Source: Mobula hypostoma
Lineage: Eukaryota
Assembly: GCF_963921235.1 (NCBI RefSeq)
Contig: NC_086097.1
Span: 25,050,001-25,114,000, forward strand
DNA length: 64,000 nucleotides
Direction: 5' to 3'
Both the position numbers and the translations under genes were made by a program. The notes under the pieces are model-generated. The model was not told the origin of the DNA, did no database searches, and worked only from the letters and a program-made list of their open reading frames with translations. Below are positions 9,720 through 63,471 of this stretch, piece after piece; the first letter of the stretch is position 1, and each line of letters begins with the position of its first letter.

Positions 9720-12400
9720 TCATAAGGAAACTGCATAACTAAAGAAATTCAGCACGCCCTTTCTGGCCCTCAAAAATTTTTATCCATGCACCATAGAAAT
9801 CATCCAGTTACATCACATCTTGGTATGGCAACTGCGCTGTCTGGGATCACAAAAAAAAGACACAGATATAGACACAGATTACTATTCAAAGTGTACAGTA
9901 AAATTATTGTCAAAGTACAAATACATCACCATATACTACCTTGAGATCCATTTTCTTGTGGACATTCACAGTAGGGCAAAGAAGTACCATAGAATCAATG
10001 AAGAGACACGCGCACACAGACTGACAAACAACCAATGTGCAAAAGAAGACAGACTGTACAAATTCAAATAAATAAATAAATTGTAAATAAATAATACTGA
10101 GAACATGTCTTGCAGAGTCCTTGAAGCTGGACTTCTTTAGAATTAAAAGCATAGATTAATAAATAGATAGATTCATAGTACTGTATTCAAAGTGATTTTT
10201 ACGATCAGAGTACATATGTGTCACCACATACAACCTGAGATTCATTTTCCTGCAGGCATACTCAGTTATAGAATTATAACTATCACAGGATCAAGGTAAG
10301 ATCAAGTAGAGTATATGGATAAATAGATAAATACTGAGAACATGAGTTGTAGATATGCTCAAAAATGAGTCATCGGGTTGTGGGATCAGTTTAGAGTTGA
10401 GGTGAATGCAGTTATCCACACTGGTTCAGGAGACTGGTTACTGTAGGGTAATAATTGTTCCTGAGCCTGGCGGTGTGCGACCCGTGGCTCCTGTACTTCC
10501 TTGCCAATGGCAGCAGCACATCGCAGAAGCCAGCCTCTCCTCCATGGGCTCTGACGATGCTTCTCACTGCATCAGTAAAGCAGCCGGCAGAATCAAAGGT
10601 CCCAGCTGCTCTGAACATTCTCCCTTCTCCCCTCTCCCATTCGTCAGAAGATACGAAAGCCTGAAAGCATGTGTCACCAAGTTAAAGGACAGCACCTGTC
10701 TTGCTGTAATAAAACTATTTAATTGTGCAAAAAGGATGAATGTTTAATCTCACAATTTAACTTCTTAGGATTCTTGCACCTTATTGTCTTCCTGCACTGT
10801 ACTTACTCTGTAATTGTAACATGTTATTCTGCATTCTGTCACGGTTTTCCCTTGTAGTATCTCAGTGCATGGATGTGATGAAATGAAATGTATGAATGAC
10901 ATTCAAAATCAAGGTTTTCACTGCACCTCAGTACATGTTACAATAATAAACTAATTTACCATTAAAGAGTATGGGTTATGGTCTGGAGCTCTGGCCCAGT
11001 ATAACTTTAAAACCCAACCCAGCCAAGGCCAACTGATCTGACTGAGCACAATGCATGAACTTAGCCCCGACCACAGGCACTGTCGGCGCGGAGTCAGCAC
11101 ATTCTCACTGTGAGTGCACGGGCTTTCTCTCAGTTCGCCACTTTCCTTCCACATCCCAAGGATATGCAGGTTGGTAGGTTACAAGCTGGCTGGCGACAGG
11201 TGAGGGGCGAGGTGGGTGGGAGGAGAAGGAAAGATGAAGTGAAAGCTGGGAGGTGATAAGTGGAAGAGGTAAAGGGCTGAAAAAGAAGAAATCTATTAGT
11301 AGAGGAGAGTGGACCAACCTCCTAAGCCCTATAACTTCGGCCCTCCAGTCCTGGCATCCGAGTTAACAATGGGTCCTGGGTCGATATATTCCTTTCACAA
11401 GTCATCCAGAGATCATGTCAGATCCTGGAGTGTCATATGATAGAAAAATAAAAGTGGATTTAATTAGGCAACGTGAATTGACAGAAAGATGTAGTTGGAA
11501 TGAAAGGGCTCAGTGATACTCACAAGTGTAGATAGTTAGCATATTTTACTGCAGCCCGGCGGTATTTCAGCTCAGCCACACTCGTCTCCCCTCTAGCTGG
11601 CTTCACCGCAGATCAAATCACAACATATCACTTCAGATCAAAGGCATTCATTGAGGGAATACCTGTGTCCACCTGACAAACCTGTCGAAGTGAGGAGTCT
11701 GCATTTCTGAGATTCACAGGCTGGAAGATGTTTCAAAGGTGTAATGTCAGATTGCAACAATATTAACAAAAAACTCTCTCGTGCTTCCTGCTTCACTACA
11801 AAGAGTGGTGCATACAGCCCAGTCCATCGCAGGCAAAGCTCTCCTCACCATGGAGTACCTCTACAAGGAGCATTGCCCCAAGAAAGCAGCATCAGTCAGC
11901 AAGGCTCGTCACCATCCAGACCAGGCTCTTTGCTCACTGCTGCTTTCGGGAAAGAGGTCCAACACCACCAGGTTTAGGAACAGTTATTACGCTTCAACCA
12001 TCAGCCTCCCGAACTAGCGTGAATAACCTCAACTCTGAATTGATGGCACAACCTGTGGACTCACTTCCGAGGACCCTACAACTCGTGCTCTCAATATTAT
12101 TTATGTACTTTCACACAAAATGCTGGAGGAACTCAGCAGGCCAGGCAGCATCTTTGGGAAAGAGTTGTCGTTTCAGGCTGAGACCCTTCAACAGGGCTGT
12201 TCCTCTATTTTATTTATGTATTTATTTATTTATTTGTTTGTTTGTTTATTATTTGTACAGGTTGTCTTCTTTTGCACTTTGGTTGTCTGTCTTTCTTGTA
12301 TGTAGTTTTACATTGTTTCTATTGTATTTCTTTGTTCTATTGTAAATGCCTGCAAGAAAGTGAATCTCAAGGTAGTATTTAATGACATGTCCGTACTTTG
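9720..12400. mobile_element. Cluster of Rex1-type 3' fragments in both orientations, with SINE and PLE-tail pieces
   Basis: Repeated LLP(S)GRRY/TTRFRNSYY-like peptides and aaatgaatctcaaggtagtatatggtga-type tails. Confidence 0.65.
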
Positions 12401-12927
12401 ATAAGATACTTTTCTTTCTCCCCCTCCTATTCTTTTTTTCCATTCCCCATTCTGGTTCCCCTCTCACTCCTTCTCTTCCCCTCACCTGCCTATCACCTCG
12501 CTCTGGTTCCCCTCCTTCTTCCCTTTCTCCTATGGTCCACTGTCCTGTCCTATCAGATTTCTTCTTCTTCAGCCCTTTATCTCTTCCACCAATCCCCTCC
12601 CATCTTACCTCATCCTGGTGAAAGGTCTCAGCCCAAAACATTGACTGTTTATTCTTCTCCATGGATACTGCCTGAACTGCTGGGTTCCTCCAGCATTTTG
12701 TTTGTGTTACTTCCTACTTCATTCCCCCTCCCCCATCCATGCACCTTCCCCCTCACTTTGTCTCACCTATCACCTGCCAGCTTCTACTACTTCCCCTTCC
12801 CCCACCTTCTTATCCTGGAAGCGTGTCTTGGCGTCAGAGGACTATCTGTGAGAGTGGATGAGTGGAAGGGTGGAACAGGGCTTGTTTTTCTGTTGTTGTT
12901 TTGTTGCTTGTTGTGTTCTGTTTTGTT

Positions 12928-18018: not shown

Positions 18019-18279
18019 CACGTCAGTGATAATAAACCCGATTCTGAAGCATAACTTGTCACAAGGCTATTGGTGGAGTCTGGAGAATTGGGGTCAGAAT
18101 CCAATGTCTGGTCCCACTCGCTGTCTGTGGCCCCTCCATGTCAACTCCGGCACAATGGAAACCAGACAGCAACAGCTCAGAGAAACTGTGGAAGGTGAAT
18201 ACAGGGCAGATCAAGCACAAAGCACTCCGCACAAAAGACTAGTGAAAGATAGGGTGAGTGCTACCTTCTTTTGGTGCCC

Positions 18280-18920
18280 AGTAGCATAGTGTGTAACACG
18301 TTACAGCACCAGCAACTGGGGCTCAATTTCCACTGCTGTCTGTAAGGAGTTTCTATGCTCTCCTCATGAATTCATGGGTCTCCTCCAAGTCCTCCAGTTT
18401 CCTCTCATATTCCAAAGCCATATGGGTTAGGATTGGCGCCTGGCTATGTAGTTAAGGCGTTGGTCTAGTGATCTGAAGGTCTCTAGTTCGAGCCTCAGCT
18501 GAGGCAGCGTGTTGTGTCCTTGAGCAAGACACTTAACCACACATTGCTCTGCGACGACACCGGTGCCAAGCTATATCTGCCCTTGTGCCCTTCCCCTGGA
18601 CAAAATCGGTGGCGTGGAGAGGGGAGACTCGCAGCATGGGCAACTGCTGGTCTTCCATATAATTGCCCAGGCCTGCGCCCTGGAAACTTTCCAAGGCGCA
18701 AATCTATGGTCTCATGAGACTAATGGATGCCTATTATTATGGGTTAGGACTAGTTAGGATTAGCATGCCCACAGCATAACATGGGCATGCTATGTTAGTG
18801 CCAGAAGTAGTGACACTGTGGGGCTGCTCCCTACACACTCTCACGTTGTGTTGTTTGTTAATGCAAACAACGCATTTCACTGTATGTTTCGATGTACACG
18901 TGTATCCTTTATCCTTATCT
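18280..18920 (+). mobile_element. V-SINE/HE1-like SINE split by a second SINE
   Basis: tRNA head and V-domain at 18280-18432; tail gggcatgctatgttagtgcc..catttcactgtatgtttcgatgtacac at 18780-18905. Confidence 0.75.
18435..18737 (+). mobile_element. tRNA-derived SINE with CORE-like domain, full length with TSD
   Basis: A box tggctatgtagttaagg, B box agttcgagcc, gtgtccttgagcaagacacttaacc; (tat)n tail; TSD tatgggttagga at 18421-18432 and 18738-18749. Confidence 0.8.
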
Positions 18921-20319
18921 TTATCTTCAAAAGGAAAATAGATTTATACTTGAACAGGAAAACCTTGGTGGGCAATGGGAAAACTGACGGGGATTGGGAC
19001 TAGCTAGATGGTTGCCATCAAATTAGTCTCAATTCGGGCATAGGCATGACAAACAAATGACCTCCATCCACTCCGTGTGAATTCTAAGGTAGAATCAACT
19101 GATGTGTTCAGTCCGGCAAAACTTGACTGGCAAACACATTTGTTGTTAAGTAATTGGGCTGATTAAAGTCAGTGGTACCTTGTTTCCAGGATTGAAATGT
19201 CTAATGACGTTTTAAATTAAGGTGAGAAGGGAGACTTCAAAGGAGATGTGTAGGGCCAGGTTTTTAACACACTGAGATGCCTGCAGATGTCTGGAATGGC
19301 CTGCCAGGGATGGTGATGGAGGCAGATAGGTTAGACGTGTTTAAGAGGCTCTTAGATTGGCAAATGAATGTGCAAGGAATGCAGGGATATGGACCACATT
19401 CAGGCGAAAAGGATTCACATCATTATAAACACTACAGACTCTTGCAGATGCTGGAAATCCAGAGAAACACATACAAAATTCTGCAGGAACTCAGTAGGTC
19501 AGGCAGCATCTATAAACAGCCGATACTTTGGGATGAGCCCTTTAATCAAGACATTAGCATAATTAGTTTGGCACAACATTGTGGTCCGAATGCCCTCTGC
19601 AGTTCGGTACGGGAGAGTCTAAGACCAGAGGACACAGCCTCAGAATAGAGGGGCATCCTTTTAGAACAGAGATGAGGAGGAATTTCTTTAGCCAGAGAGT
19701 GGTGAATCTGTGGAATTCTTTGCCACTGGCAGCTGTGGAGTGGGACATTGCGGCTGGGAGGAAAAGTGGATCAGCCATGATGCCTGTTTCTGCTCCTATA
19801 TCTTATGGTCTTCTGGTCTTATATTTATTCTGTGTTTCGTCCTGCATTTTTGGTGATCCCAGGTCAGGAGGAATGGCCTCCCACCACAGGGACTGGTTTT
19901 GACTGCTGCCCAGCCTGGTCTCAACATGCTGACCTGAGAAGTTCTGCCTGGACAGCTCCAGGTGACAAAACTGGCCACCTCTCAAAAGCAAATGGTGAAA
20001 CTTGGAACAGAGCTGACACAAACACTGAACTGGTGCTATAAATAGCTTGCCATAAAGTGCATTGCGAAGGGGAGTGAGGCTTGGAAAACATCGAGTGAAA
20101 GAGTTCCAAAGCACACACTAGTTATTTTCTCACATGCCCGAGCTAGTGTGGGACAGTAGTCCCTAACGTTATTCTCGAGGTGCACAATAATGGGATTACT
20201 AGACTAGAAATCCAGAGGACTCTTAGACAATTGAAAATTCAAGTTCACTTATCATGGGTTCAACAAAACATACAGTGAAATGTGTCTGAAAAGTATTTTT
20301 GCCGTGGATAGACATATCA

Positions 20320-20853
20320 GAATGGGAACGGTTGGAGGAACAACACCTTATATTCCGTCTGGGTAGCCTCCAACCTGATGGCATGAACATTGACTTCTCT
20401 AACTTCTGTTAGTGCCCCACCTCCCCCTTGTACCCAATCCGTTGTTTGTTTGTTTATTTATTTACTTATTTATTTATTTGTTTATTTATTTATTTATTTA
20501 TATGCACACTTTCTTTTTCTTTCTCTCCTTTTTCTCCCTCTGTCCCTCTCACTATACCCCTTGCCCATCCTCTGGGCTTTTTTTACCCCCTCCCCCTTTT
20601 CTTCCTCCCTAGGCCTCCTGTCACATGATCCTCTCATATCCCAATCAACTGTCCAGCTCTTGGCTCCATCCCTCCCCCTCCTGTCTTCTCCTGTCATTTC
20701 AGATCTCCCCCTCCCCTTCCCACTTCCAAATCTTTTACTAGCTCTTCTTTCAGTTAGTCCTGACGAAGGGTCTCGGCCCGAAACGTCGATTGTACCTCTT
20801 CCTAGAGATGCTGCCTGGCCTGCTGCGTTCACCAGCAACTTCTATGTGTGTTG
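20320..20853 (+). mobile_element. Neptune-type PLE 3' end (end of GIY-YIG ORF plus pLTR with hammerhead motif)
   Basis: RLEEQHLIFRLGSLQPDGMNIDFSNF; (ttta)n; close match to 28339-28870. Confidence 0.9.
20756..20791 (+). ncRNA. Minimal type I hammerhead ribozyme motif
   Basis: agtc-CTGACGA-a-gggtctcggccc-GAAA-c-GTC-gatt; predicted cleavage after 20787. Confidence 0.75.
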
Positions 20854-21721: not shown

Positions 21722-22055
21722 ACAGAGGGGATGGTACATGGTGATTAGGAGGAGGTTTCCTCACAAAAGTTTTAACCTGATACCACAAAAATGTACATGA
21801 GGATTTCATAGTCATTCCAGTCTGCAATGGACTTTAGCGAAGATAATCAGCTTGTTTTAGGTAATATTTTCATGCAGAGTTGAACAGCTCAAGTGGCTTG
21901 TTCTGTTGACACACTGAACTGTGCAAATCCTAAACCAACAGAAATGTAAATCCTTAATCAGACTAACAAACAAAGGCAACAGTGTGTAGGATTAACTGCC
22001 AACATACAAAATGCTTCAAGATTATTTCTCATTAACTGAGGGGTGCCTAGCACTC
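21722..22055. repeat. Low-copy block, direct paralog of 47160-47720
   Basis: Shared acctgataccacaaaaa, aatggactttag.gaagataatcagcttgtttt, cagaaatgtaaatccttaatcagactaacaaacaaagg. Confidence 0.85.
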
Positions 22056-22345: not shown

Positions 22346-24433
22346 CCTAAGACCATAAGACAAAGAAGCAGAAGTCGGCCATTCAGCCCATCGAGTCTGC
22401 TCCGCCATTTTATCATGAGCTGATCCATTCTCCCATTTAGTCCCACTCCCCCACCTTCTCACCATAACCTTTGATGTCCTGGGTACTCAGATACCTATCA
22501 ATCTCTGCCTTAATTACACCCAATGACTTGGCCTCCACTGCCGCCCGTGGCAACCAATTCCATAGATTCACCACCCTCTGACTAAAAAAATTTCTTCACA
22601 TTTCTGTTCTGAATGGGCACCCTTCAATCCTTAAGTCATGCCCTCTCGTACTAGACTCCCCCATCATGGGAAACAACTTTGCCACATCCACTCTGTCCAT
22701 GCCTTTCAATATTCGAAATGTTTCTATGAGGTCTCCCCTCATTCTTCTAAACTTCAAGGAATACAGTCCAAGAGCAGACAAACGTTCCTCATATGTTAAC
22801 CCTCTCATTCCCAGAATCTTTCTAGTGAATCTTCTCTGTACCCTCTCCAACGTCAGCACATCCTTTCTTAAATAAGGAGACCAAAACTGCCCACAGTACT
22901 CCAAGTGAGGTCTCACCAGTGCATTATAGAGCCTCAACATCACAGCCCTGCTCCTATACTCTATGAGGACTCCCAAGTCCCGTTGCATCTCAGAACTTTG
23001 AATTCTTTCCCTACTTAAATAATAGTCTGCCCATTTATTATTTCTGCCAAAGTGCATAACCATACACTTTCCAACATTGTACTTCATTTGCCACTTCTCT
23101 GCCCATTCTTCCAATCTATCCAAGTCTCTCTGCAGACTCTCCGTTTCCTCAGCACTACCGGCCCCTCCACCTATCTTCATATCATCAGCAAACTTAGCCA
23201 CAAAGCCATCTATTCCATAATCCAAATCGTTGATGTACAATGTAAAAAGAAGCGGCCCCAACACAGACCACTGCGGAACACCACTGGTAACCGGCAGCCA
23301 ACCAGAATAGGATCCCTTTATTCCCACTCTTTGTTTCCTGCCAATCAGCCAACACTCTATCCACGTATGTAACTTTCCCATAATTCCATGGGCTCTTATC
23401 TTGTTAAGTAGCCTCATGTGTGGCACCTTGTCAAAGGCCTTCTGAAAATCCAAATATACAACATCCACTGCATCTCCCTTGTCTAGCCTACTGGTAATTT
23501 CCTCAAAAAATTGTAATAGGTTTGTCAGGCAGGATTTTCCTTTAAGGAATCCATGCTGAGTTCTGCCTATCTTGTCATATGCCTCCAGGTACTCTGTGAC
23601 CTCATCCTTGACAATCGACTCCAACAACTTCCCAAAAACCGATGTCAAGCTAACAGGTCTATAAGCTCCTTTTTGCTTCCTTGCCCCCTTCTTAAATAGC
23701 GGAGTGACATTTGCAATCTTCTAGTGCTGCGGAATCATGCCAGAATCTATCAACTTTTGAAAGATCATCGCTAATGCCTCCACAATCTCCACAGCTACTT
23801 CCTTCAGAACACGCGGGTGCATTCCATCTGGTTCGGGAGATTTATCTACCTTTAGACTATTCAGCTTCCTGAGTACTTTCTCTGTTGTAATTGTGACTGC
23901 ACACACTTCTCTTCCCTGCCACCCTTGAGTGTCTGGTATACTGCTGATGTCTTCCTCAGTGAAGACTGATGCAAAATACTCGTTGAGTTCCTCTGCCATC
24001 TCCTTATCTTCCAATACAATTTCTCCAGCATCATTTTCTATCGGTCATATATCTATTCTCACCTGTCTTTTACTCTTTATATACTTGAAAAAGCTATTAG
24101 TATCCTCTTTGATATTATTTGCTAGCTTCCTTTCATAGTTAATCTTTTCCCTCTTAATGACCTTCTTGGTTTCCTTTTGTAAGGTTTTAAAAACTTCCCA
24201 ATCCTCTGTCTTCCCACTAATTTTTGCTTCCTTGTATGCCCTCTCCTTTGCTTTAACTTTGGCTTTGACTTCCCTTGTCAACCACGGTTGCATCCTTTTT
24301 CCACTCGAAAATTTCTTCTTTTTTGGAATATACCTGTCTTGCACCTTCTTCACTTCTCACATAAACTCCAGCCACTGCTGCTCTGCCGTCTTTCCCGCCA
24401 ATGTCCCTTTCCAGTCAACTTTGGCCAACTCTT
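22346..24433 (-). mobile_element. Young 5'-truncated CR1 LINE (RT domain, ORF 22596-23648) inserted in an older plus-strand CR1
   Basis: [48 protein letters not shown]; (tcttatgg)n tail; TSD tca(g/a)taaga at 22337-22345 and 24434-24442. Confidence 0.95.
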
Positions 24434-25273: not shown

Positions 25274-27023
25274 TTAGAACTTTATTCCCTAGAGCATAAG
25301 AGAATGAGAGGAAATTTGATAAATGTATACATAAATATGAGGAGTAATTGCAGGCAGGTTTTTTCTACTGAAGTTGAGTAAGACTAGGTCTTGACTTTAA
25401 CAGTGCATTGTACACTTACATTTGACATAACAAGGTGCAACACTTCACATTTGGACGGATTAAACTCCATCTGCCATATCTGCAACTGATCTATATCCCA
25501 CTGTACTCTTTCCCAGTCTTCTGTGCGATCCACAACACTACCAATCTTCATATCATCTGCAAACTTACTGACCCATCCATTTACATTTTCATCCAAGTCA
25601 TTTACCGTATATACATTACAAACAGCAGAGATCCCAGTACAGATTACTGCAGAACACCACTAATCACAGACCTCCACCTAGAATAAGTCCCTTCGATAAC
25701 TACCCTCCATTTTTTTTGGACAAGCCAGTTCTGAATCCAAATGGCCAATTCACCAGGGACCACATACACCGTAATCTTCTGGATGAGCCTCCCATGAGGG
25801 ACCTTGTTAAGCAACTTATTAAAGTCCATGTAGACAACATCCACAGCTCTACCTTCATCAATCACCCTCATCACCTCATCAAAAACCTCAATCAAGTTAG
25901 TAAGACATGACTTGCCTTGGACAAAGCCATGGGGGCTCTCCCTAATAACCTATGGTTTTCAGAACATTCATAAATCCTGCCCCTAAGCATTCTCTTCAAT
26001 AACTTCCCTACCTGATGTGAGACTCACTGGTCTACAGTTTCCAGGATTATCCCTAGTTCCCTTCATGAATAACAGAACAACATTAGCTACTCGCCAGTTC
26101 TCCAGGACTTTGCCTGTGGCTAGAAAGGGCAGGAAGATATTGGTCAAGGTCCCAGTAATCTCACCTCATGCATCTCTTAATATCCTGGGGCATATCCTAT
26201 CAAGTTCTGGGGACTTATCCGCATTAATGATCTTTAAGAGAACCAACAATGCCTCTTACCTTCCACGTCCTTCTCATTGGCAAATAATGATATAAAGTAC
26301 TCATTAAAGACCTCATCCACATTCTCCACATCCAAGCAAATGCGCTCCGCCCCACTTTATCTTTGAGTGGTCCTACCCTCTCCCTAATTATCCTCTTGCT
26401 CTTGATGTACTTATAGACTGCTTTGAGATTCCCTTCAATCCTACTTGCCAAGGGCATTTCATGGTCCCTCCTGGTTTTCTTAATTCCCTTCTTGAGTTGT
26501 TTATAATCCTCAAGGGCTCTATTTGATTCTAGCTTCCTATGTTTTCCTTTTGCTTCTTGAAAAATTTATCACCTCTCTCAACATCCAAGAGCTTTTACTT
26601 TGCCATCCTTGTCCTTCCTTCTGACCGGAACATACCTGTCCTGTACTTTGTGCAGTTGGTCTTTACACACCCTCCACATGTCAGGTGTGGACTTGCTCAA
26701 AATAGCTGTTCCCAATTAACTTTGTAGTTCCTTTCTAGTGCTCTCATAATTTGCCCTACTCCAGTTTAATGCTCTCCCACAAATTCCATTTTTATTCTTA
26801 TCTATAGCTATCAAGAAAATGAAAGAATTGTCGTCACTGTTCCTAACTGTTCACCCACTGAAACATTAGCCATCTGGCCAGGCTCATTACCCAACAGCAG
26901 GACCAGTACAGCCACTCCTCTTGTTGGACTATCTACATATTAATTTAAGACACTCTCCTGAATGCACCTAACAAATTTTGCCCCATCTAAACCTCTCGGA
27001 CTAAGGAGGCCCCAGTTTATAAA

Positions 27024-27610
27024 GAGGGAGGGGGGAAGCCCAGAGGATGGGCAACGAGTATGGTGAGAGGGACAGAGGGAGAAAATTCCATCTGGGTAGC
27101 CTCCAACCTGATGGCATGGATATCGACTTCTCTAACTTCCATTAATGCCCCACCTCCCCACCATACCCCATCCGTTATTTATTTATTTATTTGTTTATTA
27201 TTATTATTATTAACTTTTTTCTCTCTCCTTTTCCTCCCTCTGTCCCTCTCACCATACTCCTTGCCCATCCTCTGGGCTTCCCCCCTCCCCCTTTCTTTCT
27301 CCCTTAGGCCTCCTGTCCCATGATCCTCTCCCTTCTCCAGCCTCATATCTCTTTTGCCAATCAACTTCCCAGCTCTTGGCTCCATCCCTCCCCCTCCTGT
27401 CTTCTCCTATCATTTCGGATGTCCCCCTCCCCCTCCCACTTTCAAATCTCTTACTATCTCTTCTTTCAGTTAGTCCTGACGAAGGGTCTCGGCCTGAAAC
27501 GTCGACTGCACTTCATCCTATAGATGCTGCCTGGCCTGCTGCGTCCATCAGCACTTTTTGTGTGTGTTGCTTGAAATTCCAGCATCTGCAGATTTTTCCT
27601 TGTGTTTGCG
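27024..27610 (+). mobile_element. Neptune PLE 3' end with short 5' inversion; hammerhead core at 27476-27503
   Basis: 27024-27085 is the reverse complement of 27228-27290; agtcCTGACGAagggtctcggcctGAAAcGTCgact. Confidence 0.88.
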
Positions 27611-28444
27611 CTTTTAAAAACCCTGGGATATTGAGCACTCATCCTTGCCCTTGCCTCCTGCACCATTTCTTCATCCACTCATTCATCTGTACTATCATTC
27701 TATTCCTGCCCTGATTAATACATAGCACCAGGAGTAATTCAGAGATTACTACCTTGGAGGTCCTGCTCTTCAGTCCCTTTCCTAATTCTCTATACTCACT
27801 GTACAGAACCTCTTTCTCCTTTCTACCGTTGTCACTGGTGCCAATGTGCACCACGACCTCTGGATGAATCACCCTCCCCTTGAGAATATTCTACTTCCAA
27901 TCTGAGATATCCTGGATCCTAGCACCTGGGAGACAACACACCATCTTGGTGTCTCTTTCGCAACCACAGAATCTCCTGTCTGTCTCCATAATCACTGAGT
28001 CTCCAATTACTACCACTCTGCCTGACTGAGCCTTAGAGCCGGCCACATTGCCACAGGCCTGGCTGCTGCTGCTGTTCCCTGATAGCTTATCCACCCCCCA
28101 GCAGTATCCAAAGGGGTTTACTTGTTGCTGAGGGGAATGGCCACAGGAGAACCATGCCCTGACTGCCAACTCCCCCTACTTCTCCTGGTGGTCACCCATC
28201 AGCACAAGTTTCATATTTGGGGTTTTCAGCCACACGGATGGTCCTAAGTACATCCAGCTCCAGCTCCAATTCCTTCACCTTGTCAGTCAAAAGATGAAGT
28301 TGGGTGCACACCCTGAAGATGTAGTCATCAGGCAGACCAACAACAACAAATAACAGGAATTCTGCAGATGCTGGAAATTCAAGCAACACACATAAAAGTT
28401 GCTGGTGAACGCAGCAGGCCAGGTAGCATCTCTAGGAATAGGTG

Positions 28445-28486
28445 CAGTCGACGTTTCAGGCCGAGACCCTTCGTCAGGACTAACTG
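28445..28486 (-). ncRNA. Minimal hammerhead ribozyme motif in the Neptune pLTR
   Basis: Minus strand cagttagtc-CTGACGA-agggtctcggcct-GAAA-c-GTC-gactg. Confidence 0.75.
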
Positions 28487-30089
28487 AAGGAAGAGTGAGT
28501 AAGGGATTTGAAAGTTGGAGGGGGAAGGGGAGATGCAAAATGATAGGAGAAGACAGGAGGGGGAGGGATGGAGCCAAGAGCTGGACAGGTGATAGGCAAA
28601 AGGGATACAAGAGGATCATGGGACAGGAGGTCCGGGAACAAAGACGGGGGGGGAGGGGACCCAGAGGATGGGCAAGGGGTATATTCAGAGGGACAGAGGG
28701 AGAAAAAGGAGAGTGAGAGAAAGAATGTGTGCATAAAAATAAGTAACAGATGGGATACGAGGGGGAGGTGGGGCATTAGCAGAAGTTAGAGAAGTCGATG
28801 TTCATGCCATCAGGTTGGAGGCTACCCAGGCAGAATATAAGGTGTTGTTCCTCCAACCTGAGTGTGGCTTCATCTTTTCAGTAGAGGAGGCCGTGGATAA
28901 ACATGTCAGAATGGGAATGGGATGTGGAATTAAAATGTGTGGCCACTGGGAGATCCTGCTTTCTCTGGCGGACAGAACATAGATGTTCAGCAAAGCGGTC
29001 TCCCAGTCTGCGTCGGGTCTCGCCAATATATAAAAGGCCACATCGGGAGCACCGGACGCAGTATATCTCCCCAGCCGACTCACAGGTGAAGTGTTGCCTC
29101 ACCTGGAAGGACTGTTTGGGGCCCTGAATGGTGGTGAGGGAGGAAGTGTAAGGGCATGTGTAGCACTTGTTCCGCTTACACGGATAAGTGCCATGAAGGA
29201 GATCAGTGGCAAGGGATGGGGGGGACGAATGGACAAGGGAGTTGCGTAGGAAGCGATCCCTGCGGATGCGGGGGGGGGGGAGGGAAAGATGTGCTTAGTT
29301 GTGGGATCCCGCTGGAGGTGGCGGAAGTTACGGAGAATAATATGTTGGACCCAGAGGCTGGTGGGGTGGTAGGTGAGGACCAGGGGAACCCTATTCCTAG
29401 TGGGGTGGCGGGAGGATGGAGTGAGAGCAGATGTACGTGAAATGGGGGAGATGTGTTTAAGAGCAGAGTTGATAGTGGAGGAAGGGAAGCCTCTTTCTTT
29501 AAAAAAGGAAGACATCTCCCTCGTCCTAGAATGAAAAGCCTCATCCTGAGAGCAGATGCGGCGGAGACGGAGGAATTGCAAGAAGGGGATGGCGTTTTTG
29601 CAAGAGACAGGGTGAGAAGAGGATTGGTCCAGATAGCTGTGAGAGTCAGTAGGCTTATAGTAGACATCAGTGGATAAGCTGTCTCCAGAGACAGAGACAG
29701 AAAGATCTAGAAAGGGGAGGGAGGTGTCGGAAATGGACCAGGTAAACTTGAGAGCAGGGTGAAAGTTGGAGGCAAAGTTAATAAAGTCAACGAACTCTGC
29801 ATGCGTGCAGGAAGCAGCGCCAATGCAGTCGTCAATGTAGCGAAGGAAAAGTGGGGGATAGATACCAGAATAGGCATGGAACATAGATTGTTCCACAAAG
29901 CCAACAAAAAGGCAGGCATAGCTAGGACCCATACGGGTGCCCATAGCTACACCTTTAGTTTGGAGGAAGTGGGAGGAGCCAAAGGAGAAATTATTAAGAG
30001 TAAGGACTAATTCCGCTAGACGGAGCAGAGTGGTGGTAGAGGGGAACTGATTAGGTCTGGAATCCAAAAAGAAGCGTAGAGCTTTGAGA

Positions 30090-30262
30090 CCTTCCTGATG
30101 GGGGATGGAAGTATATAGGGACTGGACATCCAACCTTCCTGATGGGGGATGGAAGTATATAGGGACTGGACATCCAACCTTCCTGATGGGGGATGGAAGT
30201 ATATAGGGACTGGACATCCAATCTTCCTGCTGGGGGTTGGAAGTATATAGGGACTGGACATC
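30090..30262 (-). repeat. 44-bp tandem repeat x~4 of the RT motif-A coding segment at the PLE 5' junction
   Basis: cttcctg.tggggg.tggaagtatatagggactggacatc begins at 30091, 30135, 30179 and 30223. Confidence 0.95.
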
Positions 30263-31199
30263 AGGCAGACCGTTGGGTACCCTGTAATTCCTCATCTCAC
30301 AGGAAGAGCATTCAACCACCTTAACTACCATCCTGCCCCGCACTGAATTAAGGACTAAGGATTTACAGACAACAACAAAAAAAACCTTTCCTGTTCTTGC
30401 CTATGCCTTCTCTCTGAAACCTTTGTGTTTTGCCCTCACCTGGGTCACTGACTCAGCCTCTTCTCACTGAGCTTTGGCTCTAAAAGGCCCCACTCACTTT
30501 TTAAAACTGGCACATAAAGTTCACAAGGGACTGTTTCCAACTCTCTCCTCAATCTCTTGCTCTCAAGACAAGTCCCAACAGGCTCCACTTGCTTTTTAAC
30601 ATTGGCAAATAAAGTCCACAAGGAATTCTCTCCATGAAAAGGTTTGGGAACTTTATGACTGACTACAGAGCAGGATACTCTGTGTAATAGTTTCATGGTA
30701 TCATTCATGAACATTAAGAGCAGTGCAAGGGTAGGAATAGGCTGCAAACATTGGCTGGGATTAACTGTGGCATTGCCTTCATTGAAAAACTTACTACTGC
30801 TCTTGAGGGGAATTAAACCCTGACATGGGTAATGTCACTACAAGAAACCAGAAAAGAGAAAAAGAAAGAGACCAAATAATCTCTCCAACACACACAAAGT
30901 GCTGGAGGAACTTGTCAGGTGTCGGCCCAAAACATCGACTGTTTATTCTCCTCCATAGATGCTGTCTGACCTGCTATGTTCCTCCAGCATTTTGTGTGTA
31001 TCGCTCAAGATTTCCAGCATCTGCAGAATATCTTGTGACTATAAGCAATCTCTCTTGACGTTTTAATAACATCTCCACTCAAATACTCGCAAGAAAATAA
31101 ATCTTAAGGTAGTATATGGTAGCACATACGTACTTTGATGCTAAATTTACTTGAACTTTGAATTTGGAATATTGTGTTCAGTTTTGGTCACCCATTATA

Positions 31200-42760: not shown

Positions 42761-42786
42761 GAAAGCTTTCAAGGCTTTGTATATTG

Positions 42787-42920
42787 AGTCCTGACGAAGG
42801 GTCTCGGCCTGAAACGTCGACTGCACCTCTTCCTAGAGGTGCTGCTTGGCCTGCTGCAGTCACCAGCAACTTTTATGTGTGTTGCTTGAATTTCCAGCAT
42901 CTGCAGAATTCCTGTTGTTA
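42787..42920 (+). mobile_element. Minimal PLE-tail insertion starting exactly at the hammerhead (core 42791-42818)
   Basis: agtcCTGACGAagggtctcggcctGAAAcGTCgact...gaattcctgttgtt; imperfect TSD aaggctt(t)gtat. Confidence 0.85.
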
Positions 42921-45900
42921 AGGCTTGTATTTTACTAACCTGACAATGCTGGCACTGGGCAACAAAATTATCCCAGAAGGCACATTCACCCAAAGAAGCA
43001 CTCTGCTCCCCTTCCAAAATAATGCAAGATAAACATTCTTTAGGAATGAACACTTTAGCACCTTCAGTAAAAGCCATAAATAGAGAATTTATTTAAATTG
43101 TAAAGTCTTTTCATCGTAATGTTTTAAACAGGTTTACAACAATTACTAAATCAGTCTGTGCAATGATCTTATTCAAATAGTAAGCCTATGTATTGTAAGA
43201 CACGAGTGCAATAATACAGCTCAATTCAAATTAATTCGTGAAGATTTACACACGACGATCAGGGTATCCAGTCACTACCAATGAAAGATAAAACACACTT
43301 ATATTGCTGTGCACCTGGAGTCTTTAAACGCTGAGCGAGGTTTAGCTCATTTATGCAGCTATGCAAGATGCAAATTATGTGGCAATTAAAGACATTTGCA
43401 TTTATATACTGTCTAATCAAGCTGAAATGTTTCAAAGCATTTGGCATAAGTTACGTTAAGAGCTGAGGCTATAGCAGCATGTACATAACTCGTCTGCACC
43501 AGGCACACACACACACACACACATAACTCCTTAACCTGTTTTCAGGAAGCACAAAGAACGAATGCTGATCAGGAGATGGGAACAATTCCTAGCTCTTCTC
43601 CAGAGACTGTTGTAAAGGTCTTTAACAACTGCCTAAGAGCCAGGACCTTGGTTTAACATCTTCTCTGGAAGTTAGGGATGGGAAAGCTATGTAACATAGC
43701 ACCAGAGAAGAGAATGGAAAAAGGTGTCTCTTCAGATTTTGGTGGTGGAGAGAGCTCATAATCTGGAGAAATATGTTTGCACAAAGAATTCAATAACCTG
43801 GAAAGGAAGAATGGAAAGACAGCAAAACTTCTAAAGTTTACAGTGCATGAGGAACCAGGAGTTTGCAACTGTAAGCTGTCTGTACTACTACAAAACCCTT
43901 GACAACATACGTGACCAGTAACATGGAGTAAACATTTGATCCCTGATTGGTCAGAGGTTACTCACTGAGACCAAGTGTTGCTGGTGAAATAAAGGCAAGG
44001 AAAGGAACAACTTCCTATGTCTAACAGTCTGGCGTACACTCAATGAGAGTGTTGATGGTTTCATAATGGACAGATACCAACTTCTGCCTTATATCTTATG
44101 GTCTGTGACATCTCTTGGTGGGGAATCCGCTATCCTCCTGCAGGGTTTGAATCAGTCTGAGTCACCGGCCCTGTAATGATTTTTAGTGCTGGTCTGAGCC
44201 ACAGCAAAAGATGGACAGGAGGGTTTGGGTAGGAAAAGGTGCCCAGGTTTAGAATTTCCAGTTTGCTTCCAAATATACTATGGAGTGATCCACACGTACA
44301 AAATGTTGGAGGAACTCACCAGGCCATGCGTCAAATATGGAGAGGAGTAAACAGTTGATGTTTCAGGCCAAGATCCTAAATCGGAATTGGAAAGGAATGG
44401 CATAGAAGCCAGAAATAAGAAGGCGATGAGAGGGATAGGAGTACAAGCTGGAAGGTGATAGGTGAGACCAGGTGAGGGGGAATAAAGTAAGAAACTGGGA
44501 GGGAACCTGTGTCCCGGTTAAGGGTCTCAGGCTGAAATGTCGACCATAGATGCTGTTTGACTGTTGAGAGCCTCCAGCATTTTGTGTGCATTGATCCAAA
44601 TTTCCAGCATTTTGTGTGCATTGATCCAAATTTCCAGCATTTACAAAATCCCCAAGGAGAGATACTTGCTTAAAAAGATTCAATCACTGACTTGGAAACA
44701 ACAAAAGTTAACAACAATTTCAACTACGTAGAAAGCACTCGAGCACTGCCAGTGCAGGAAATGCTGTAAGGAAGACACTGACTATATGTAAAAAGAGGCC
44801 TCCTTAATTCACGGTCTCTAGATTCAGTGTTATTCAAGGCACTTCACCAATCACCAATAGAAAGTCAATTTATGGCTTTAGTCTCTGTAGGCCAGTACAG
44901 AGATCCCACTATTTAACCAATGGATGTCAACAACTATATTATTCAGTTATAATCTTCTCTTTCAAGCTTGTTTGAACATTTGGTGTCCAGCAGCAGAACT
45001 GTTCTGCCATCTCTGTGTCCCTCAGTAGATTTACATGTTGACAGTCTTGTACCAGGCTTTTTGGTGGGCTGCATAGCATCTGGGATACTCTCCTTGCTCA
45101 GCTCAGGGTGTCAGCTGCAGGTTCCTTCTCAGAAGAGTAACCAACAAATAGATTCAGGAATTCTGACCGTCGAGATAGGTGCAAACATAGCTTTGGCTTG
45201 GCACAGATTCTAATTATCATCTTCTGAAAATGGCCAAAGCTTCTGTGAATTTCACTCCTCGATCCAAAGCAGTTTAGTCCTCTTCCATTCCCCAGTAAGA
45301 ACTGGTGATTGTACCTCATTCGTTGATCCAACTGTAAGATTAGAATAATCTTGATTTTACTTTAAGATTAAAGAATTTAGGCCCGTTTCTGAGAGCTGTG
45401 TTCATTGAGCATGGTTGCCAAAACAAATTCTAGTGCCTAAAGCTTATCTTCAGAGTTGGCTGGAAAAAAAAGCAGACATTCTTACTTCTTGCATGTAACA
45501 CATATATGGAATGATATGTCTCAATGGCATGCAAACAAAATCTCTTCCCTGTATCTCATTACATTTTACAATACCAAATCAAAGCAAACTTCTGGACTGA
45601 TCTTCGTGCAACACACACAAAGTGCTGGAGGAACTCAGCAGGCCAGGCAGGATCTATGGAAAAAAGGTACAGTTGATGTTTCGGGCCGAGACCCTTTGGC
45701 AGGACCGTGATTCTGACAACCTCCAGATTAAATTAATGACATAGTGCAAATTAGCAGGCACAGCTAGTTTTTGCCTCATTCTTTGTTTCAATAATTGCAA
45801 CTATTCTTTCCTTCTCCAGCTGTTTGCTTGCTATCCTTTCAAGAACAGATGAAGATAACATGGCTGTTTTGTCACTACACTGAAAAAGCTAATAAGAGGA

Positions 45901-46119
45901 CTGGCAATAAATGGTATTACTGGCATATCAACAAGTTTCGGCCTGAATCGTCGAATGTATTTTTTTTTCATAGATGCTGCCTGGCCTGCTGAGTTCCTCC
46001 AACATTTTGTGTGTGTGTTGTATCAACAGGTTAGGATCATTTGCAGCTGTGTGCTTCAAGTATCCCCACAGACAGTGACAGGAGTGTCGTTGCATTTATC
46101 TCAGTTCTGTGCTGAAATG

Positions 46120-46652: not shown

Positions 46653-47159
46653 GAATCAGTAAGGCCTTAAGATTTTTAGAGACCCCTTCACCTTTGCAAG
46701 TCTGGATTTCAGACACAGGTTGAGAAGGCAATAAACCAGTACACAATGCCATGAAGCCTGCTCCAGTACACATGCAAACCTTAAATAAAAGCTGAAAATG
46801 CTGGAAACACTCCACACCGTTTTTTCCAGGCCGTTAGAGGAGGTTCATGAGAATGTATGAGGAACATTTGATGGCTCTGGGCCTGTACTCACTGGAGTTT
46901 AAAAGAATGAGTTGGGGAGTAAGGGGGTTTCGATCTCATTGAAACCTATTGAATAATCCAGCACCACACACAAAATGCTGGAGGAACTTCAGCAGGCCAG
47001 GCAGCATCTATGGAAAACGTACAGTCGATGTTTCGGACTGAGACCATTCAGCAGATGCCTGCTGAGTTCCTCCAGCATTTTGCGTGTGTTGCTTGGATTT
47101 GCAGCATCTACAGATTTTCTCTTATTTGTGAATAGTCCAGCATGAATGTGTATCAACTA

Positions 47160-47720
47160 CGGAGGGAGTGGTAGATGGTGATTGAGAGTAGGTTTCCTTA
47201 TCCATGTTTGACCTGATACCACAAAAACTGTATGAGGATTTCACAGTCATTCCAGTCGGTAATGGACTTTAGTGAAGATAATCAGCTTGTTTTCAGTAAT
47301 GTGTTCACACAATGTTAAACAGATTGAGTGGCTGTTCTGCTGACACATCAAACTATGCAAATCCTAAAGCAACAGAAATGTAAATCCTTAATCAGACTAA
47401 CAAACAAAGGTACTAGTTTGTAGAATTAACTATCAACATGCAAAACACTCCAAGAAACTAATTTCTCATCACTGAGACACGAGGAAATCTGCAGATGCTG
47501 GAATTTCAAGCAACACACATAAAATCTGCTGGTGAACACAGCAGACCAGGCAGCATCTCTAGGAAGAGGTACAGTTGACGTTTTGGGCCGAGACCCTTCG
47601 TGGGGTCTCAGCCCGAAACGTCGACTGTACCTCTTCCTAGAGATGCTGCCTGGCCTGCTGCGTTCCACCAGCCACGTTTATGTGTGTTGCTCTCATCACT
47701 GAGAGTTACCCAGCACTTGC
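47160..47720. repeat. Low-copy block paralogous to 21722-22055, interrupted by a fold-back element
   Basis: Colinear similarity by eye; resumes after 47704 (agttacccagcactt vs ggtgcctagcactc). Confidence 0.85.
47478..47690. mobile_element. Fold-back PLE-tail element with 14-bp TSD
   Basis: Arms 47510-47600 and 47603-47690 are inverted and joined within the hammerhead; TSD tctcatcactgaga at 47464-47477 and 47691-47704. Confidence 0.9.
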
Positions 47721-49606: not shown

Positions 49607-49914
49607 CTGTAACGAAAAGTGCAACCTTGATCAGTGATCCACCTGCAGATGAGAATTAAAGACACCATATCTACAAACCCACCCACCAGCCCACCTGACC
49701 CAAACACTATCAACTTAAAGACCTTACTCTTATGAACATAGAAGAAAACAGCATAGGAACAGACCCAGTGTCTGTGTTGAACACAATGTCCAATTAACAC
49801 AAATGAACACAAGTGATTCTGTAAATATTGGATATCTAGAGCAACACATATAAACATGCGCAAGTCAGGCAGCATCTATGGAGGGAATGAAGAGTCACCC
49901 CATGGCCACATAGA

Positions 49915-52110
49915 AACAGAGAAACATAGAAAATCTACAAACATTACAGGCTCTTCAGCCCACAATGTTGTGCCAACCATGTAACCTACTCTAGAAACTG
50001 CTTACAATTTCCATACTGCATAGCCCTCTGTTTTTCTAAGCTCCATGTACCTATCTAAGAGTCTCTTAAAAGACCCTTTTGTATCCGCCTCTACCACTGT
50101 CACTGGCAGTGCATTCCATGCACCCAACACTCTCTGTGTGAAAAACTTACCTCTGACATCCCCCTTGTACCTACTTCCAAGCACCTTAAAACTATGTCCC
50201 CTCATGTTAGCCATTTCAGCCCTGGGAAAAAAACCTCTGGCCATCCACACAACCAATGCCTCTCATCATCTTATGCACCTCTATCAGGTCACCTCCTTTC
50301 CTCCGTCACTCCAAGAAGAAAAGGCCAAGTTCACTCAACCTATTAGCAACGCTCTCAACTTGCGCAGCAGCTTTTAGTGTCGTATGGACACGACCCCAAC
50401 ATCTTGCTGATCCTCCACACTGCCAAGAGACTTACCATTAATATTATATTCTGTCTTCAAATTTGACCTACCGAAGTGAACCTCTTCACACTTGTAAGAC
50501 CATAAGATATAGGAGCAGAAGTAGGCCATTCGGCCAATTGAGTCTGCTCTGACTTTCAATCATGGGCTGATCCAATTCTTCCAGTCATCCCCACTCCCCT
50601 GCTTTCTCCCCATACCCTTTGATGCCCTGGCTAACCAAGAACCTATCTATCTCTGCCTTAAATGCACCCAATGACTTGGCATCCACAGCCACTCGCAACA
50701 ACAAATTCCACAGATTTACCACTCTCTGACTAAAGTAATTTCGCCACATCTCTCTTCTAAATGGACATCCTTCAATCCTGAAGTCATGTCCTTTTGTCCT
50801 AGACTCCCTTACCATAGGAAACAACTTTGCCAAATCTAATCTGTTCAGGCCTTTTAACATTCGGAATGTTTCTATGAGATCTCCCCTCATTCTCCTGAAC
50901 TCCAGGGAATACAGCCCAAGAGCTGCCAGATGTTCCTCATACAGTAACCCCTTCAATCCTGGAATCATTCTCGTGAATCTTCTCTGAACCCTCTCCAATG
51001 TCAGTATATTCTTTCTAAAATAAGCAGCCCAAAACTGCACACAATACTCCAAGTATGGTCTCATGAGTGCCTTACAGAGCCTCAGCATCATATCCCTGCT
51101 CTTATATTCTATACCTCTAGAAATGAATGCCAACATTGCATTTGCCTTCTTCACCACCGACTCAACCTGGTGGTTAACTTTCAGGGTATCCTGCACAAGG
51201 ACTCCCCAGTCCCTTTGCATCTCTGCATTTTGAATTCTCTCCCCATCTAAATAATAGTCTGCCCATTTATTTCTTTCACCAAAGTGCATGACCATACATT
51301 TCCAACATTGTATTTCATTTGCCAGTTCTTTGCTCATTCCCCTAAACTATCTAAGTCTCTCTGCAGGCTCTCCGTTTCCTCAACACTACCCGCTTCTCCA
51401 CCTATCTTTGTATCATCAGCAAACTTAGCCACAAATCCATTAATCCCATAGTCCAGATCATTGACATACATTGTAAAAAACAGCAGTCCCAACACCGACC
51501 TACGTGGAACTCCACTGGTAACCAGCAGCCAGCCAGAATAGGATCCCTTTATTCCCAGTCCCTGTTTTCTGCCAATCAGCCAATGCTCCACCCATGCTAG
51601 TAACTTCCCTGCAATTCCCTGGGCACTTATCTTGCTAAGTAGCCTCATGTGTGGCACCTTGTCAAAGGCCTTCTGAAAATCCAAGTACACCACATCTACT
51701 GCATCTCCTTTGTCAAATCTGCTTGTAATTTCCTTATCTGGGTTGAACTCCATCTGCCACTTCTCAGCCTAGTTCTGCATCCTATTGATGACCCACTGTA
51801 ACCTCTGACAACCCTCCAGACTATCCACAACAACTCCACTTTTGTATCATCAGCAAACCTACTAGTCCACCCTTCTACTTCTTCATCCAAGTCATTTATA
51901 AAAATCACAAAGTGAGGGGTGCCAGAACAGATCCCTGTGGAACACCACTGGTCATCGACCTCCACACAGAATACAAACCATCCACAACCATCCTTTGCCT
52001 TCTGTGGGCAAGCCAATTCTGGATCCACAAAGCAAGGTCTCCTTGGATCCCATGCCTCATTACTTTCTGAATGAACCTCACATGGGGATCCTTACCAAAT
52101 GACTTACTGA
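49915..52110 (-). mobile_element. Nested CR1 cluster; youngest copy 50495-51730 encodes RT and C-terminus
   Basis: ORFs 50585-51337 and 51334-51753 (YLDFQKAFDKVPH, KFADD); the older host CR1 is split at 50490/51735. Confidence 0.92.
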
Positions 52111-52479
52111 TATAAATGGGAGGGAGAGATAGTTTTTCTCTGGGTACACCATACAAACAGCGGTGGGAATGGAAACCCGATCTTACAGCAGGTGCTGTAA
52201 AGCACTGTGCTAACCCCTTTGCTACCATGCTACCCAGTAATTAAACCCGGAGCTGGCACATTCTTGTGGAAGTCAAATGTATTTCTCCCACTGGCAGCCC
52301 TGAGACTTAACGGGCATTGGCTAAAGTTCAAAGCTCAAAGTAAATTTCTGTCAAAGTACGTATATGTCACCATATACTACCCTGAGATTTTTTTTGCAAA
52401 CATTCATAGTAGAATAAAGAAATACAATAGAATCAATTGAAAACTACACACAAACAAACACGAGAAAATCTGTAGATGC

Positions 52480-53710
52480 TGACCCTGACCTCATACAACA
52501 TGAAGACTCTAGAGAGGCTGGTCCTACTCACCTCTGACCCATCATCAGATCAGCCCTCGATCCCCTGCAGCTTGCCTACCAGGAGCACGACGATGCCGTC
52601 ATCTACCTGTTGAACAGAGCCTACTCCCATTTGGATAAGAAGGGCAGTACTGTGAGGATCATGTTTCTTGGTTTCTCAAGTGCCTTCAATACCATACAGT
52701 CATCATTGCTGGGGGGAAAAGCTCCATTCATTGCAGGTCCGCACTTCCATTGTATCCTGGATAATGGACTACCTGACTTGCAGACCACAGTTTGTGGAGC
52801 TTCAGAGCTGTGTGTCAGACATGGCTATAAGCAGCACTGGGTGTATTGGCCCCCTTCCTGTTTACCCTGCATACCTCAGACTTTAGATACAACACTGAGT
52901 TGCGTCATCTGCAGAAATCCTGTGATGACTCAGCAATAGTTTAGTGTATAAATGGAGGATAGGAGGATGGGTCCTAACGGAGGACTTTATCAAATGGTCC
53001 AAGCTAAATCATCCACAGCTCAACATCAGTAAGACAAACGAGATGGTGATGGACTTTAGGAAGTCTAAGCCTGCACTGGTCCCTGTTACTATTGACGGTG
53101 AGGACATGGATGTGGTGAACACCTACAACTATCTGAGGGTGCACTTGGATGACAGACTTGAGTGGAGCACCAATGCAGAGGGCCGGAGTCGCCTCTACTT
53201 CCTGAGTAGACTGAGGTCCTTTGGAGTATGCCTCTCCTTCACATGTTCTACCAGTCTGTTGTCCCCAGTATAATCTTCTATGCAGTGGTGTACTGGGGCA
53301 ATGGGTGATGCCAACAGGCTCAATAAACTGATTAGAAAGGCTGGCTCTGTTATAGGAGTCAAACTGGACATACTGGAGGCTGTGGTACAACAAAGGGGCC
53401 CATGGAAAATCCTGGTAATTCTGGACAATGTTACTCACCCTCTGCATGCCATCTTGGCCAAACAGAAGAGCACTTTTAGTAATAGACTAAGACAACTGCG
53501 CTGCTCCAAAAAGCGCTATATGAGGTCTTTCTTACCCTCGGCCATTAGGCTCTATAATGAGTCAACCTATAGCTGGGGAAGTGATGACCCCCTCCTGTTA
53601 GACTGTTTGAGGTAACTTTTTTTCTATTCTTTCTCACTTCTCTTCTAATATTTGTGAATTTGTAGAGACTCTAATTTCCTTTGGGATCAATGAAGTATCT
53701 ATCTATCTTA
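52480..53710 (+). mobile_element. Rex1/Babar LINE RT and 3' end
   Basis: AYSHLDKKGSTVRIMFLGFSSAFNTI, LNISKTNEMVMDFRK, RYMRSFLPSAIRLYN; (tatc)n tail. Confidence 0.9.
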
Positions 53711-53715
53711 TTCCA

Positions 53716-53892
53716 AAGCAACACACAAAAGATGCTGGAGGAACTCAGCAGGCCAGGCAGCAGCTATGGAAAAGAGTACAGTCGATGTTTCGAGCTGAGA
53801 CCCTTCATCGGGTTCTGGCCCGAAATCTCAACTGTTTACTCTTTTCCATAAACACTGCCTGGCCTGCTGAGTTTCTCCAACATTTTGTGTAC
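53716..53892. mobile_element. Fold-back PLE-tail element
   Basis: Inverted arms joined at cccttcatc|gggttctggcccgaaa (hammerhead region). Confidence 0.8.
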
Positions 53893-62801: not shown

Positions 62802-62988
62802 CTGTACGTCCAAGGGCATTCAAAATTAACACAGGTTTGGTTATTTCACATTATGACACATTGTGCCCACTCTTGGAATATTACTTTCAGTTCTGATTGC
62901 CTCATCATAGGAGGATATGGAAGCTTTAAAGAGAGTGTAGAGGAGGTTTGCCAGGACGCTGCCTATATTACAGATCATATCTTATGAG

Positions 62989-63171
62989 CGCAAACACAAG
63001 GAAATCTGCAGATGCTGGAATTTCAAGCAACACACATAAAAGTTGCTGGTGAACGCAGCAGGCCAGGCAGCTTCTCTAGGAAGAGGGTCTAGGAAGGGTC
63101 TCGGCCCGAAACATCAACTGTGCCTCTTTCTAGAGATGCTGCCTGGTCTACTGCGTTCACCAGCAACTTTT
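62989..63171. mobile_element. Fold-back PLE-tail element with 12-bp TSD inside a CR1 (62850-63470)
   Basis: TSD atatcttatgag at 62977-62988 and 63172-63183; inverted arms, the second starting at gaagggtctcggcccgaaac. Confidence 0.88.
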
Positions 63172-63471
63172 ATATCTTATGAGGATAGGTTGAGAAAGCT
63201 AGGGCTTTTCTCTCTGGAGCGAAGGAGGATGAGGAGGTGACTTGAGATAGATGTACAAGATGATAAGAGGCATTGATCGAATAGATAGCCAGAGACTTTA
63301 TCTCATCCAGAAATGGCTAGTACAAGGACGCAAAATTTTAATGCAACTGAAGGGAAGTACTGGGGGGTGTCAGAGGTAAGTTCTTTACACAGAGAGTGGT
63401 GATGTCCTGCCAGGAGTGGTGGCATTGGCAGATACATCAGGGTCATTTAAGAAATTCATAGATAGGCACAC

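Follow-up and report, generated by a model that had tools for sequence, protein, structure and literature searches.

Short head-to-head fold-backs of PLE 3' ends in a genomic window of Mobula hypostoma, and the position of their 5' ends

Six short fold-backs in the window (the whole 64,000-nucleotide stretch of Mobula hypostoma DNA analysed here) are best explained as single dead insertions made by the protein of a Penelope-like element (PLE), in which two short cDNAs, probably stopped by a template end or a block, were joined 5'-to-5' and never re-copied as units. The probability of this reading is put at about 0.8. The fold-backs are the shortest form of a known kind of PLE insertion that combines an inverted, 5'-truncated copy with a one-sided tail. 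Features are collected in Table 1. Positions within the element (rel) have their origin at the hammerhead cut predicted for the parent, so that rel 0 is window position 28450. Papers are cited by accession.

Table 1. PLE features of the window. Arm ends are rel positions; TSD p values are from comparison with 3000 random site pairs.
Feature	Position	Strand	Details
Parent PLE, 5'-truncated, frameshifted	28339..30258	-	RT, Cx4CxxC linker, GIY-YIG, pyrimidine-rich UTR, minimal hammerhead, tail; 13-bp TSD
Predicted minimal type-I hammerhead motif of parent	28445..28481	-	Helix I 5' strand from 28481, CUGACGA from 28477, predicted cut after 28450
Main fold-back, TSD left copy, 14 bp	47464..47477	+	p = 0.002; one copy at paralogous empty site near 22026-22040
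Main fold-back, long arm, PLE 3' end	47478..47601	-	rel -24 (within CUGANGA core) to ~+101; ~35-nt tail included
Main fold-back, putative junction base	47602		One extra base; join at most ~2 nt from the product of the CCT/AGG turn
Main fold-back, short arm, PLE 3' end	47603..47690	+	rel -19 (first G of stem II) to +67; without tail
Main fold-back, TSD right copy, 14 bp	47691..47704	+	Perfect 14-mer
Fold-back, 12-bp TSD	62977..63183		p = 0.003; arm ends ~+7 / -22; short duplicated word at join
Fold-back, older subfamily	53716..53892		Arm ends -28 / -20 (CCT/AGG turn); two short 3' ends; TSD not found (p = 0.48)
Fold-back, 14-bp TSD with 1 mismatch	46950..47142		p = 0.003; arm ends -27 / ~+20
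Fold-back, marginal 8-bp TSD	30878..31054		p = 0.057; arm ends ~+28 / -20
Old fold-back	44290..44660		Arm ends ~-150 / -30; TSD not found (p = 0.21)
Single arm	42787..42919	+	rel -31 to ~+103; minimal hammerhead core intact; imperfect TSD
Single arm	12111..12198	-	rel -31 to ~+61; TSD
Single arm	45608..45705	-	rel -30 to +67; TSD not found
Single arm	12612..12712	+	From ~rel -29; flanks map side by side near 15367-15371
Single arm	45935..46020	+	rel -17 to ~+66; 12-bp TSD with 1 mismatch

Parent element, fold-backs and single arms

The clearest fold-back, at 47478-47690, consists of two 3' ends of a Neptune/Nematis-type PLE lying head-to-head within a perfect 14-bp TSD. A preliminary description, made from the letters alone, had recognised a hairpin of about 210 bp here, built of inverted PLE 3' tails, and this was borne out: the stretch from 47464 to 47704 folds at -168.4 kcal/mol (z = -18.0, equalled by none of 200 shuffles), the TSD is significant, and an empty site is present in the window. 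The latter is a paralogous repeat near 22026-22040, 85% identical to the left flank over 119 nt and a weak match to the right one, in which the target word is present once; the 14-bp duplication was therefore made by the insertion. The two arms are 88.6% identical over 88 columns, with several of the differences at CpG, while the best match of each arm to other copies is 93-94%. Since the arms are less alike than these matches elsewhere, they have not been homogenised. An assembly artefact was rejected as the source of the structure on the grounds of the 11% arm divergence, the TSD and the empty site. The fusion had been placed inside hammerhead stem II, which needs correction, as the join falls between the CUGANGA core and stem II: both arms retain stem II, and the CUGA core and the 5' strand of helix I are lost.

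In the parent copy, a match to RVT_1 (E = 3.6e-4) is followed by a frameshift and then by a match to GIY-YIG (E = 4.8e-4), both below the Pfam gathering scores, and a Cx4CxxC linker precedes the endonuclease in the translation of 28881-29294. A CX2-5CxxC linker before the endonuclease is a Neptune/Nematis feature (PMC8557442). Judged from its sequence, the parent is an EN+ PLE of Neptune/Nematis type, the two clades being taken together. Four tandem 44-bp copies (97% match) at 30089-30262 make up its 5' junction, abutting the TSD, and look as if RT had re-primed several times there. The minimal hammerhead motif is intact in four copies in the window. An Rfam search of the window with E up to 1 gave no hammerhead match and four matches in all, every one far below gathering; the only one over a fold-back reached 39 bits, where the gathering score is 211. 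In every long copy of either subfamily, pyrimidines make up 79-81% of the 70 nt upstream of -31. In both subfamilies, the word at -33 to -27 fits what is taken to be the initiator consensus (YYANWYY, with A at -31), and it fits a pyrimidine-tract/AG acceptor equally well. The family is extremely abundant (191,749 of the 29.7 million contigs of one run match a 601-nt stretch of it), which puts a very large set of junctions on offer.

Five further independent fold-backs had been proposed (at 62989, 53716, 46964, 30887 and 44290), and all are indeed two-armed. The head-to-head layout, with an inverted 5'-truncated copy adjoining a direct copy, is common to all six, and in each both arms come from the same major subfamily; at 53716 the two arms are distinguished by a 2-nt variant, one by which older copies fall into two groups. 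Five of the six have a one-sided tail of 30-40 nt, the exception being 53716, where both 3' ends are short. Five also combine a long 3' end (~+95 to +108) with a short one (~+58 to +68), the pairing alone not being significant, and the short 3' end is found as well in single arms without inversion. Where present, the TSD is a single one of variable length (8-14 bp) around the whole unit. It is significant in three cases (47478, 62989 and 46964, with p = 0.003 for the 12-bp TSD reported at 62989-63171), marginal at 30887 and not found at 53716 or 44290, which leaves the label "TSD-flanked" good for half of the set. The placing of the breakpoints at the ribozyme is likewise true in part: both arms end at its 5' edge in two fold-backs, and the other four have a partner arm with its end elsewhere, at about +7, +20, +28 or -150. 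Several fold-backs have flanks with matches among other dispersed repeats of the window, and the tail of one arm at 44290, otherwise old and diverged, contains a perfect 30-bp tandem duplication (44573-44642, 2.3 copies).

Inverted pieces also occur at the 5' ends of two longer PLE copies (27021-27085 and 20301-20331), reaching the endonuclease-coding end. They start far upstream of the tail, at rel ~-190 and ~-440 respectively, no TSD was found for either insertion, and they are more like the products of L1 twin priming. Their existence makes the short fold-backs one end of a continuum with coding copies.

Among the single arms, those at 42787, 12110-12198 and 45610-45706 had been described as bounded near the 5' strand of the ribozyme. 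They start at rel -31, -31 and -30, and none of six longer copies matches the 70 nt upstream of them, which marks these positions as true 5' ends rather than points of subfamily divergence. A spliced-exon origin found no support, as the single arms showed no common upstream sequence in the 70 nt before -31. The arm at 12612-12712 sits nested within the pyrimidine-rich UTR of an older PLE copy, which likewise points to a real truncation. At 42786-42787 an additional G separates the imperfect TSD from rel -31; it could be a copied cap, though this is a single case. A profile search of the window recovered the arms already described and, in addition, one weak match of 27 nt at 49860-49886; this and 52458-52481 are tiny tail fragments of 24-27 nt.

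Elsewhere in the window, a 68-nt palindrome at 17956-18023 has a weak Rfam match to mir-9256 (33 bits against a gathering score of 80) and lies inside an ORF (17645-18289) that is taken to resemble a Tc1-type transposase. LINE RT fragments, presumably CR1-like, are located at 22596-23720 (RVT_1, E = 2.9e-30) and 50585-51346, and a minus-strand ORF at 1349-1921 matching Pfam ALKBH8_N (E = 4e-13) is presumed to be the C-terminal part of another LINE, probably.

Clustering of 5' ends at the edge of the ribozyme motif

The 5' ends were called by hand, giving 25 from 19 insertions, with the arms of one insertion not independent and ends 3' of about +35 hard to detect. The count excludes both inverted pieces of the longer copies, an internal fragment and the weak match at 49860-49886. 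Fifteen of the 25 fall between rel -31 and -17, three between -16 and +35, and none between -140 and -32; six arms or insertions read through beyond -140. The expectation that breakpoints along the PLE tail would be non-uniform was thus confirmed, with none of 20,000 simulations under a uniform null reaching 15 of 25 in the -31 to -17 zone. A narrower uniform null with two ambiguous arms removed gave p = 0.0002. Under a geometric null, p was at most 0.0005 for means of at least 60 nt and 0.03 for a mean of 30 nt, or 0.09 without the two ambiguous arms.

The availability of palindromes found no support as the sole cause of the cluster. Inverted matches of at least 3 nt make up 7-9% of position pairs at -16 to +5 and the same 7-9% at -32 to -17, and the longest ones (6 nt) flank the predicted cut site. 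With such matches equally available near the cut, microhomology may pick a particular join, and it does not set the region. Primer-template homology was rejected as a driver, runs at 11 PLE 3' ends being 0-2 nt long with no excess.

Contig data were also compared. In two DNA runs a pile of loose ends (611 and 545 contigs) lies at 28481, or rel -31, among the six positions listed per run, a coincidence confounded by the consensus there being older-subfamily UTR with an agreement of only 0.39-0.40. Contig depth in run X1 falls from 1.1e7 over the ribozyme to 5.1e6 and 2.9e6, and rises to 7.3e6 further upstream; this unevenness is ascribed to contigs breaking in young repeats. One read of 10 million matched in the raw-read run X21.

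How the fold-backs may have formed

The proposed course of events would begin with the PLE endonuclease opening the target on both strands, with a stagger of 12-14 nt. Two cDNAs would then be started, usually one at each of the two 3' start points of the element (~+58 to +68 and ~+95 to +108); both would stop after 30-200 nt and be joined 5'-to-5', some through inverted matches of 2-4 nt. Most would halt at rel -31 to -17, the probable reason being a template end or a block at the ribozyme's 5' edge, read here as a pyrimidine tract meeting AG together with an initiator-like word. The anatomy, the TSDs, the two 3' ends, the unique junctions, the clustering and the loss of the core are all observed in the window, while two-strand cleavage and two internal RT starts are drawn from the literature; conjectural are the order in which the steps follow one another and what causes the boundary at -31. 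For this boundary, it is tentatively suggested that a start site or a splice acceptor fixes the 5' end of the RNA at the base with which ribozyme helix I begins, with RT from internal sites running off after 100-130 nt. In D. virilis Penelope, the 3' splice site of an intron lies at the 5' end of helix I (PMC4209133), and the start site, with an internal promoter, lies 45 nt before an intron (PMC2377424).

The boundary had originally been attributed to the ribozyme, its structure or cleavage setting the point of RT stalling or template switching. In keeping with this, each of the six fold-backs has at least one arm ending in the 5' half of the ribozyme, in a family with four intact copies of the motif in the window. 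Cleavage making the RNA 5' end predicts ends at +1, however, and none of the 25 lies within 5 nt of the predicted cut, nor is there a cut-site entry among the loose ends listed. Moreover, ribozyme mutants of an anole PLE insert unchanged in vitro, with no RNA-seq reads beginning or ending at the cut (PMC11167929), and minimal hammerheads cleave poorly and need dimers (PMC4209133). Stalling on the fold fits poorly too, since RT would reach the 3' side of the fold first and the ends are on the 5' side; at -20 to -31 the enzyme would already have copied the 3' strands of both helices. The attribution is not sustained, and for either version to set the turn seems very unlikely. An RT drop-off on entering the 80%-pyrimidine tract, through a weak RNA:DNA hybrid or bound proteins, would replace the RNA end altogether. 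It would suit the composition of all long copies upstream of -31 and the read-through of several copies (six arms or insertions beyond -140), but it should scatter ends into the tract, where there are none in -140 to -32, and the single arms stop sharply at -31 to -29; this explanation is regarded as doubtful.

The join itself could have been made differently, by a snap-back in which one cDNA reaching about -28 to -31 folds (AGG with CCT) and primes itself, the second arm being a DNA copy of the first, later resolved at the tail by the endonuclease. The two-cDNA join and the one-molecule snap-back yield the same junction. A run-off cDNA of the older subfamily ending at -31 or -28 is predicted to form a 3-bp hairpin; the 53716 join is the predicted product with one substitution and that of 47478 is at most ~2 nt off, in two different subfamilies; the shared subfamily of the arms in all six cases is as expected; and for rotifer PLEs a model of self-priming at junction palindromes has been put forward, in which the template is antisense (PMC3846280). 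Against this, whole-strand folds of -2 to -5 kcal/mol make for a weak hairpin, four of six joins are strongly asymmetric, and the short 3' end is found in single arms without inversion. The 2-nt subgroup variant between the 53716 arms hints at two templates, at one locus only. The asymmetric joins and the discordant variants lead us to lean towards two cDNAs, with snap-back a possible, though rather unlikely, route.

A further proposal in the preliminary description was a self-propagating non-autonomous family, retrozyme-like or MITE-like. In such a family, read-through transcripts would let the PLE protein copy the hairpin whole. The density (six fold-backs in 64 kb), the two joins near the same CCT/AGG turn and the RT start region kept on both strands speak for it, as does the ability of pLTR sequences to mobilise cargo in trans (PMC3846280). 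Identical junctions at different loci were looked for in the window, and all six proved unique, even in two fold-backs of the same young subfamily, a result that excludes only dominance by a few families. The joins of 47478 and 53716 are near the same turn, but the arms of the two subfamilies are only 63-77% alike, so these joins are convergent. No CUGANGA...GAAA core is present on either strand in any of the six, having been lost or mutated, and none of the 11 tandem arrays in the window consists of ribozyme-bearing units. The arms differ by the ~35-nt tail, so that the inverted repeats are not flush at both ends; the TSDs vary (8-14 bp); and there is CpG-type decay between arms. No fold-back joint (tail to tail region) was found among the best 15 of 261 joints in the contig data. 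With every junction different, no hammerhead core and no tandem units, such a family is left unsupported and is considered highly improbable. The 47478 fold is strong, yet the differences between its arms look like neutral decay; if read through, fold-backs could be a background source of dsRNA.

Known systems and what the fold-backs record

In rotifer and other PLEs, inverted copies have been described that lie head-to-head, bear a tail of 30-40 bp on one side only and have palindromes at the junction and TSDs of 8-10 bp (PMC3846280, PMC8557442), which agrees with the earlier statement that an inverted pLTR piece is a common pattern of PLE insertion. Complex EN+ PLE insertions share with the fold-backs the head-to-head arms, palindromic or microhomologous joins, a tail on one arm, TSDs of 8-14 bp and heavy 5' truncation. 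The differences are that here both arms are cut to ~25-220 nt, so that the whole insert is a hairpin, and that the 5' ends cluster at the ribozyme 5' edge, which is not reported for those insertions in the available text of PMC3846280 and PMC8557442. De novo PLE insertions in Chlamys have a median length of 128 bp (PMC9977147, PMC5753468).

The protein of the anole PLE (Poseidon, PAc) cuts both target strands, extends each of them and begins reverse transcription at two internal positions bounding the tail (PMC11167929). The likeness to the present case extends to the two RT start points, the dispensability of primer-template homology and that of the ribozyme for insertion. PAc belongs to a different clade, whereas the element here has a Cx4CxxC linker; its RT starts are in an AC-rich loop inside the ORF, while the sense tail here is UG-rich; and the available text of the PAc study (PMC11167929) holds no analysis of inversion junctions. 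Metazoan PLEs carry the same minimal type-I hammerhead motif as is predicted in the parent copy, and in Schistosoma dual minimal motifs occur ~100-700 bp apart on opposite strands (PMC4209133); in contrast, the six fold-backs have lost or mutated the core. Non-LTR retrozymes are similarly non-coding, PLE-related, ribozyme-derived and ~200 nt long, but they are head-to-tail tandems with a complete ribozyme in each unit and a circular RNA, whereas the fold-backs are head-to-head, single and without a core (PMC7229834, bioRxiv 10.64898/2026.07.22.740005).

Two further classes differ in layout. MITEs are short, non-coding, hairpin-forming and TSD-flanked; the fold-backs, in comparison, have no transposase-type terminal repeats, their ends are unequal, their TSD length varies and no family of identical units was seen. 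In L1 twin priming an inverted piece lies by one TSD, is joined through microhomology and is derived from upstream of the direct piece, whereas here both arms cover the same sequence.

Outside the window, a 24-nt tail pattern had no matches in viral contigs or in metagenome contigs. An RT query found 23 loci, all of them distant, most with 24-35% identity in the best segment and five with 53-56% on short segments. At one of these, in a metagenome contig (L011, 1401-1743), there is a 344-nt fold-back of another PLE family with hammerhead-like motifs in both arms. It turns ~75 nt upstream of the CUGA core, and the -31 boundary is therefore family-specific at best, not universal. At another (L013, 3918-4099), a 184-nt near-perfect palindrome lies downstream of the RT match, and no hammerhead core was found in it.

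Given the parallels in rotifer and other PLEs, Schistosoma, anole and L011, the fold-back structure itself is known. Clustering at the ribozyme 5' edge is the sole part not found in print: a literature search confined to main texts, and for the most part to papers outside subscription, gave no report of PLE 5' ends clustering at helix I, and none of a hairpin PLE family in cartilaginous fish.

As elements, the fold-backs are ordinary debris; what gives them value is the mechanism that they record. PMC8557442 states as an open question how inverted PLE ends are built. If the RNA does have a fixed 5' end at helix I, a "strong-stop-like" cDNA would explain at once why solo arms are so plentiful, how the hairpin stubs arise and why ordinary PLE insertions have an inverted pLTR, and solo arms from -31 might retain the start site and be re-transcribed. 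Should the -31 boundary hold genome-wide and match an RNA end, the structure of the transcript would be tied to the inverted pLTR.
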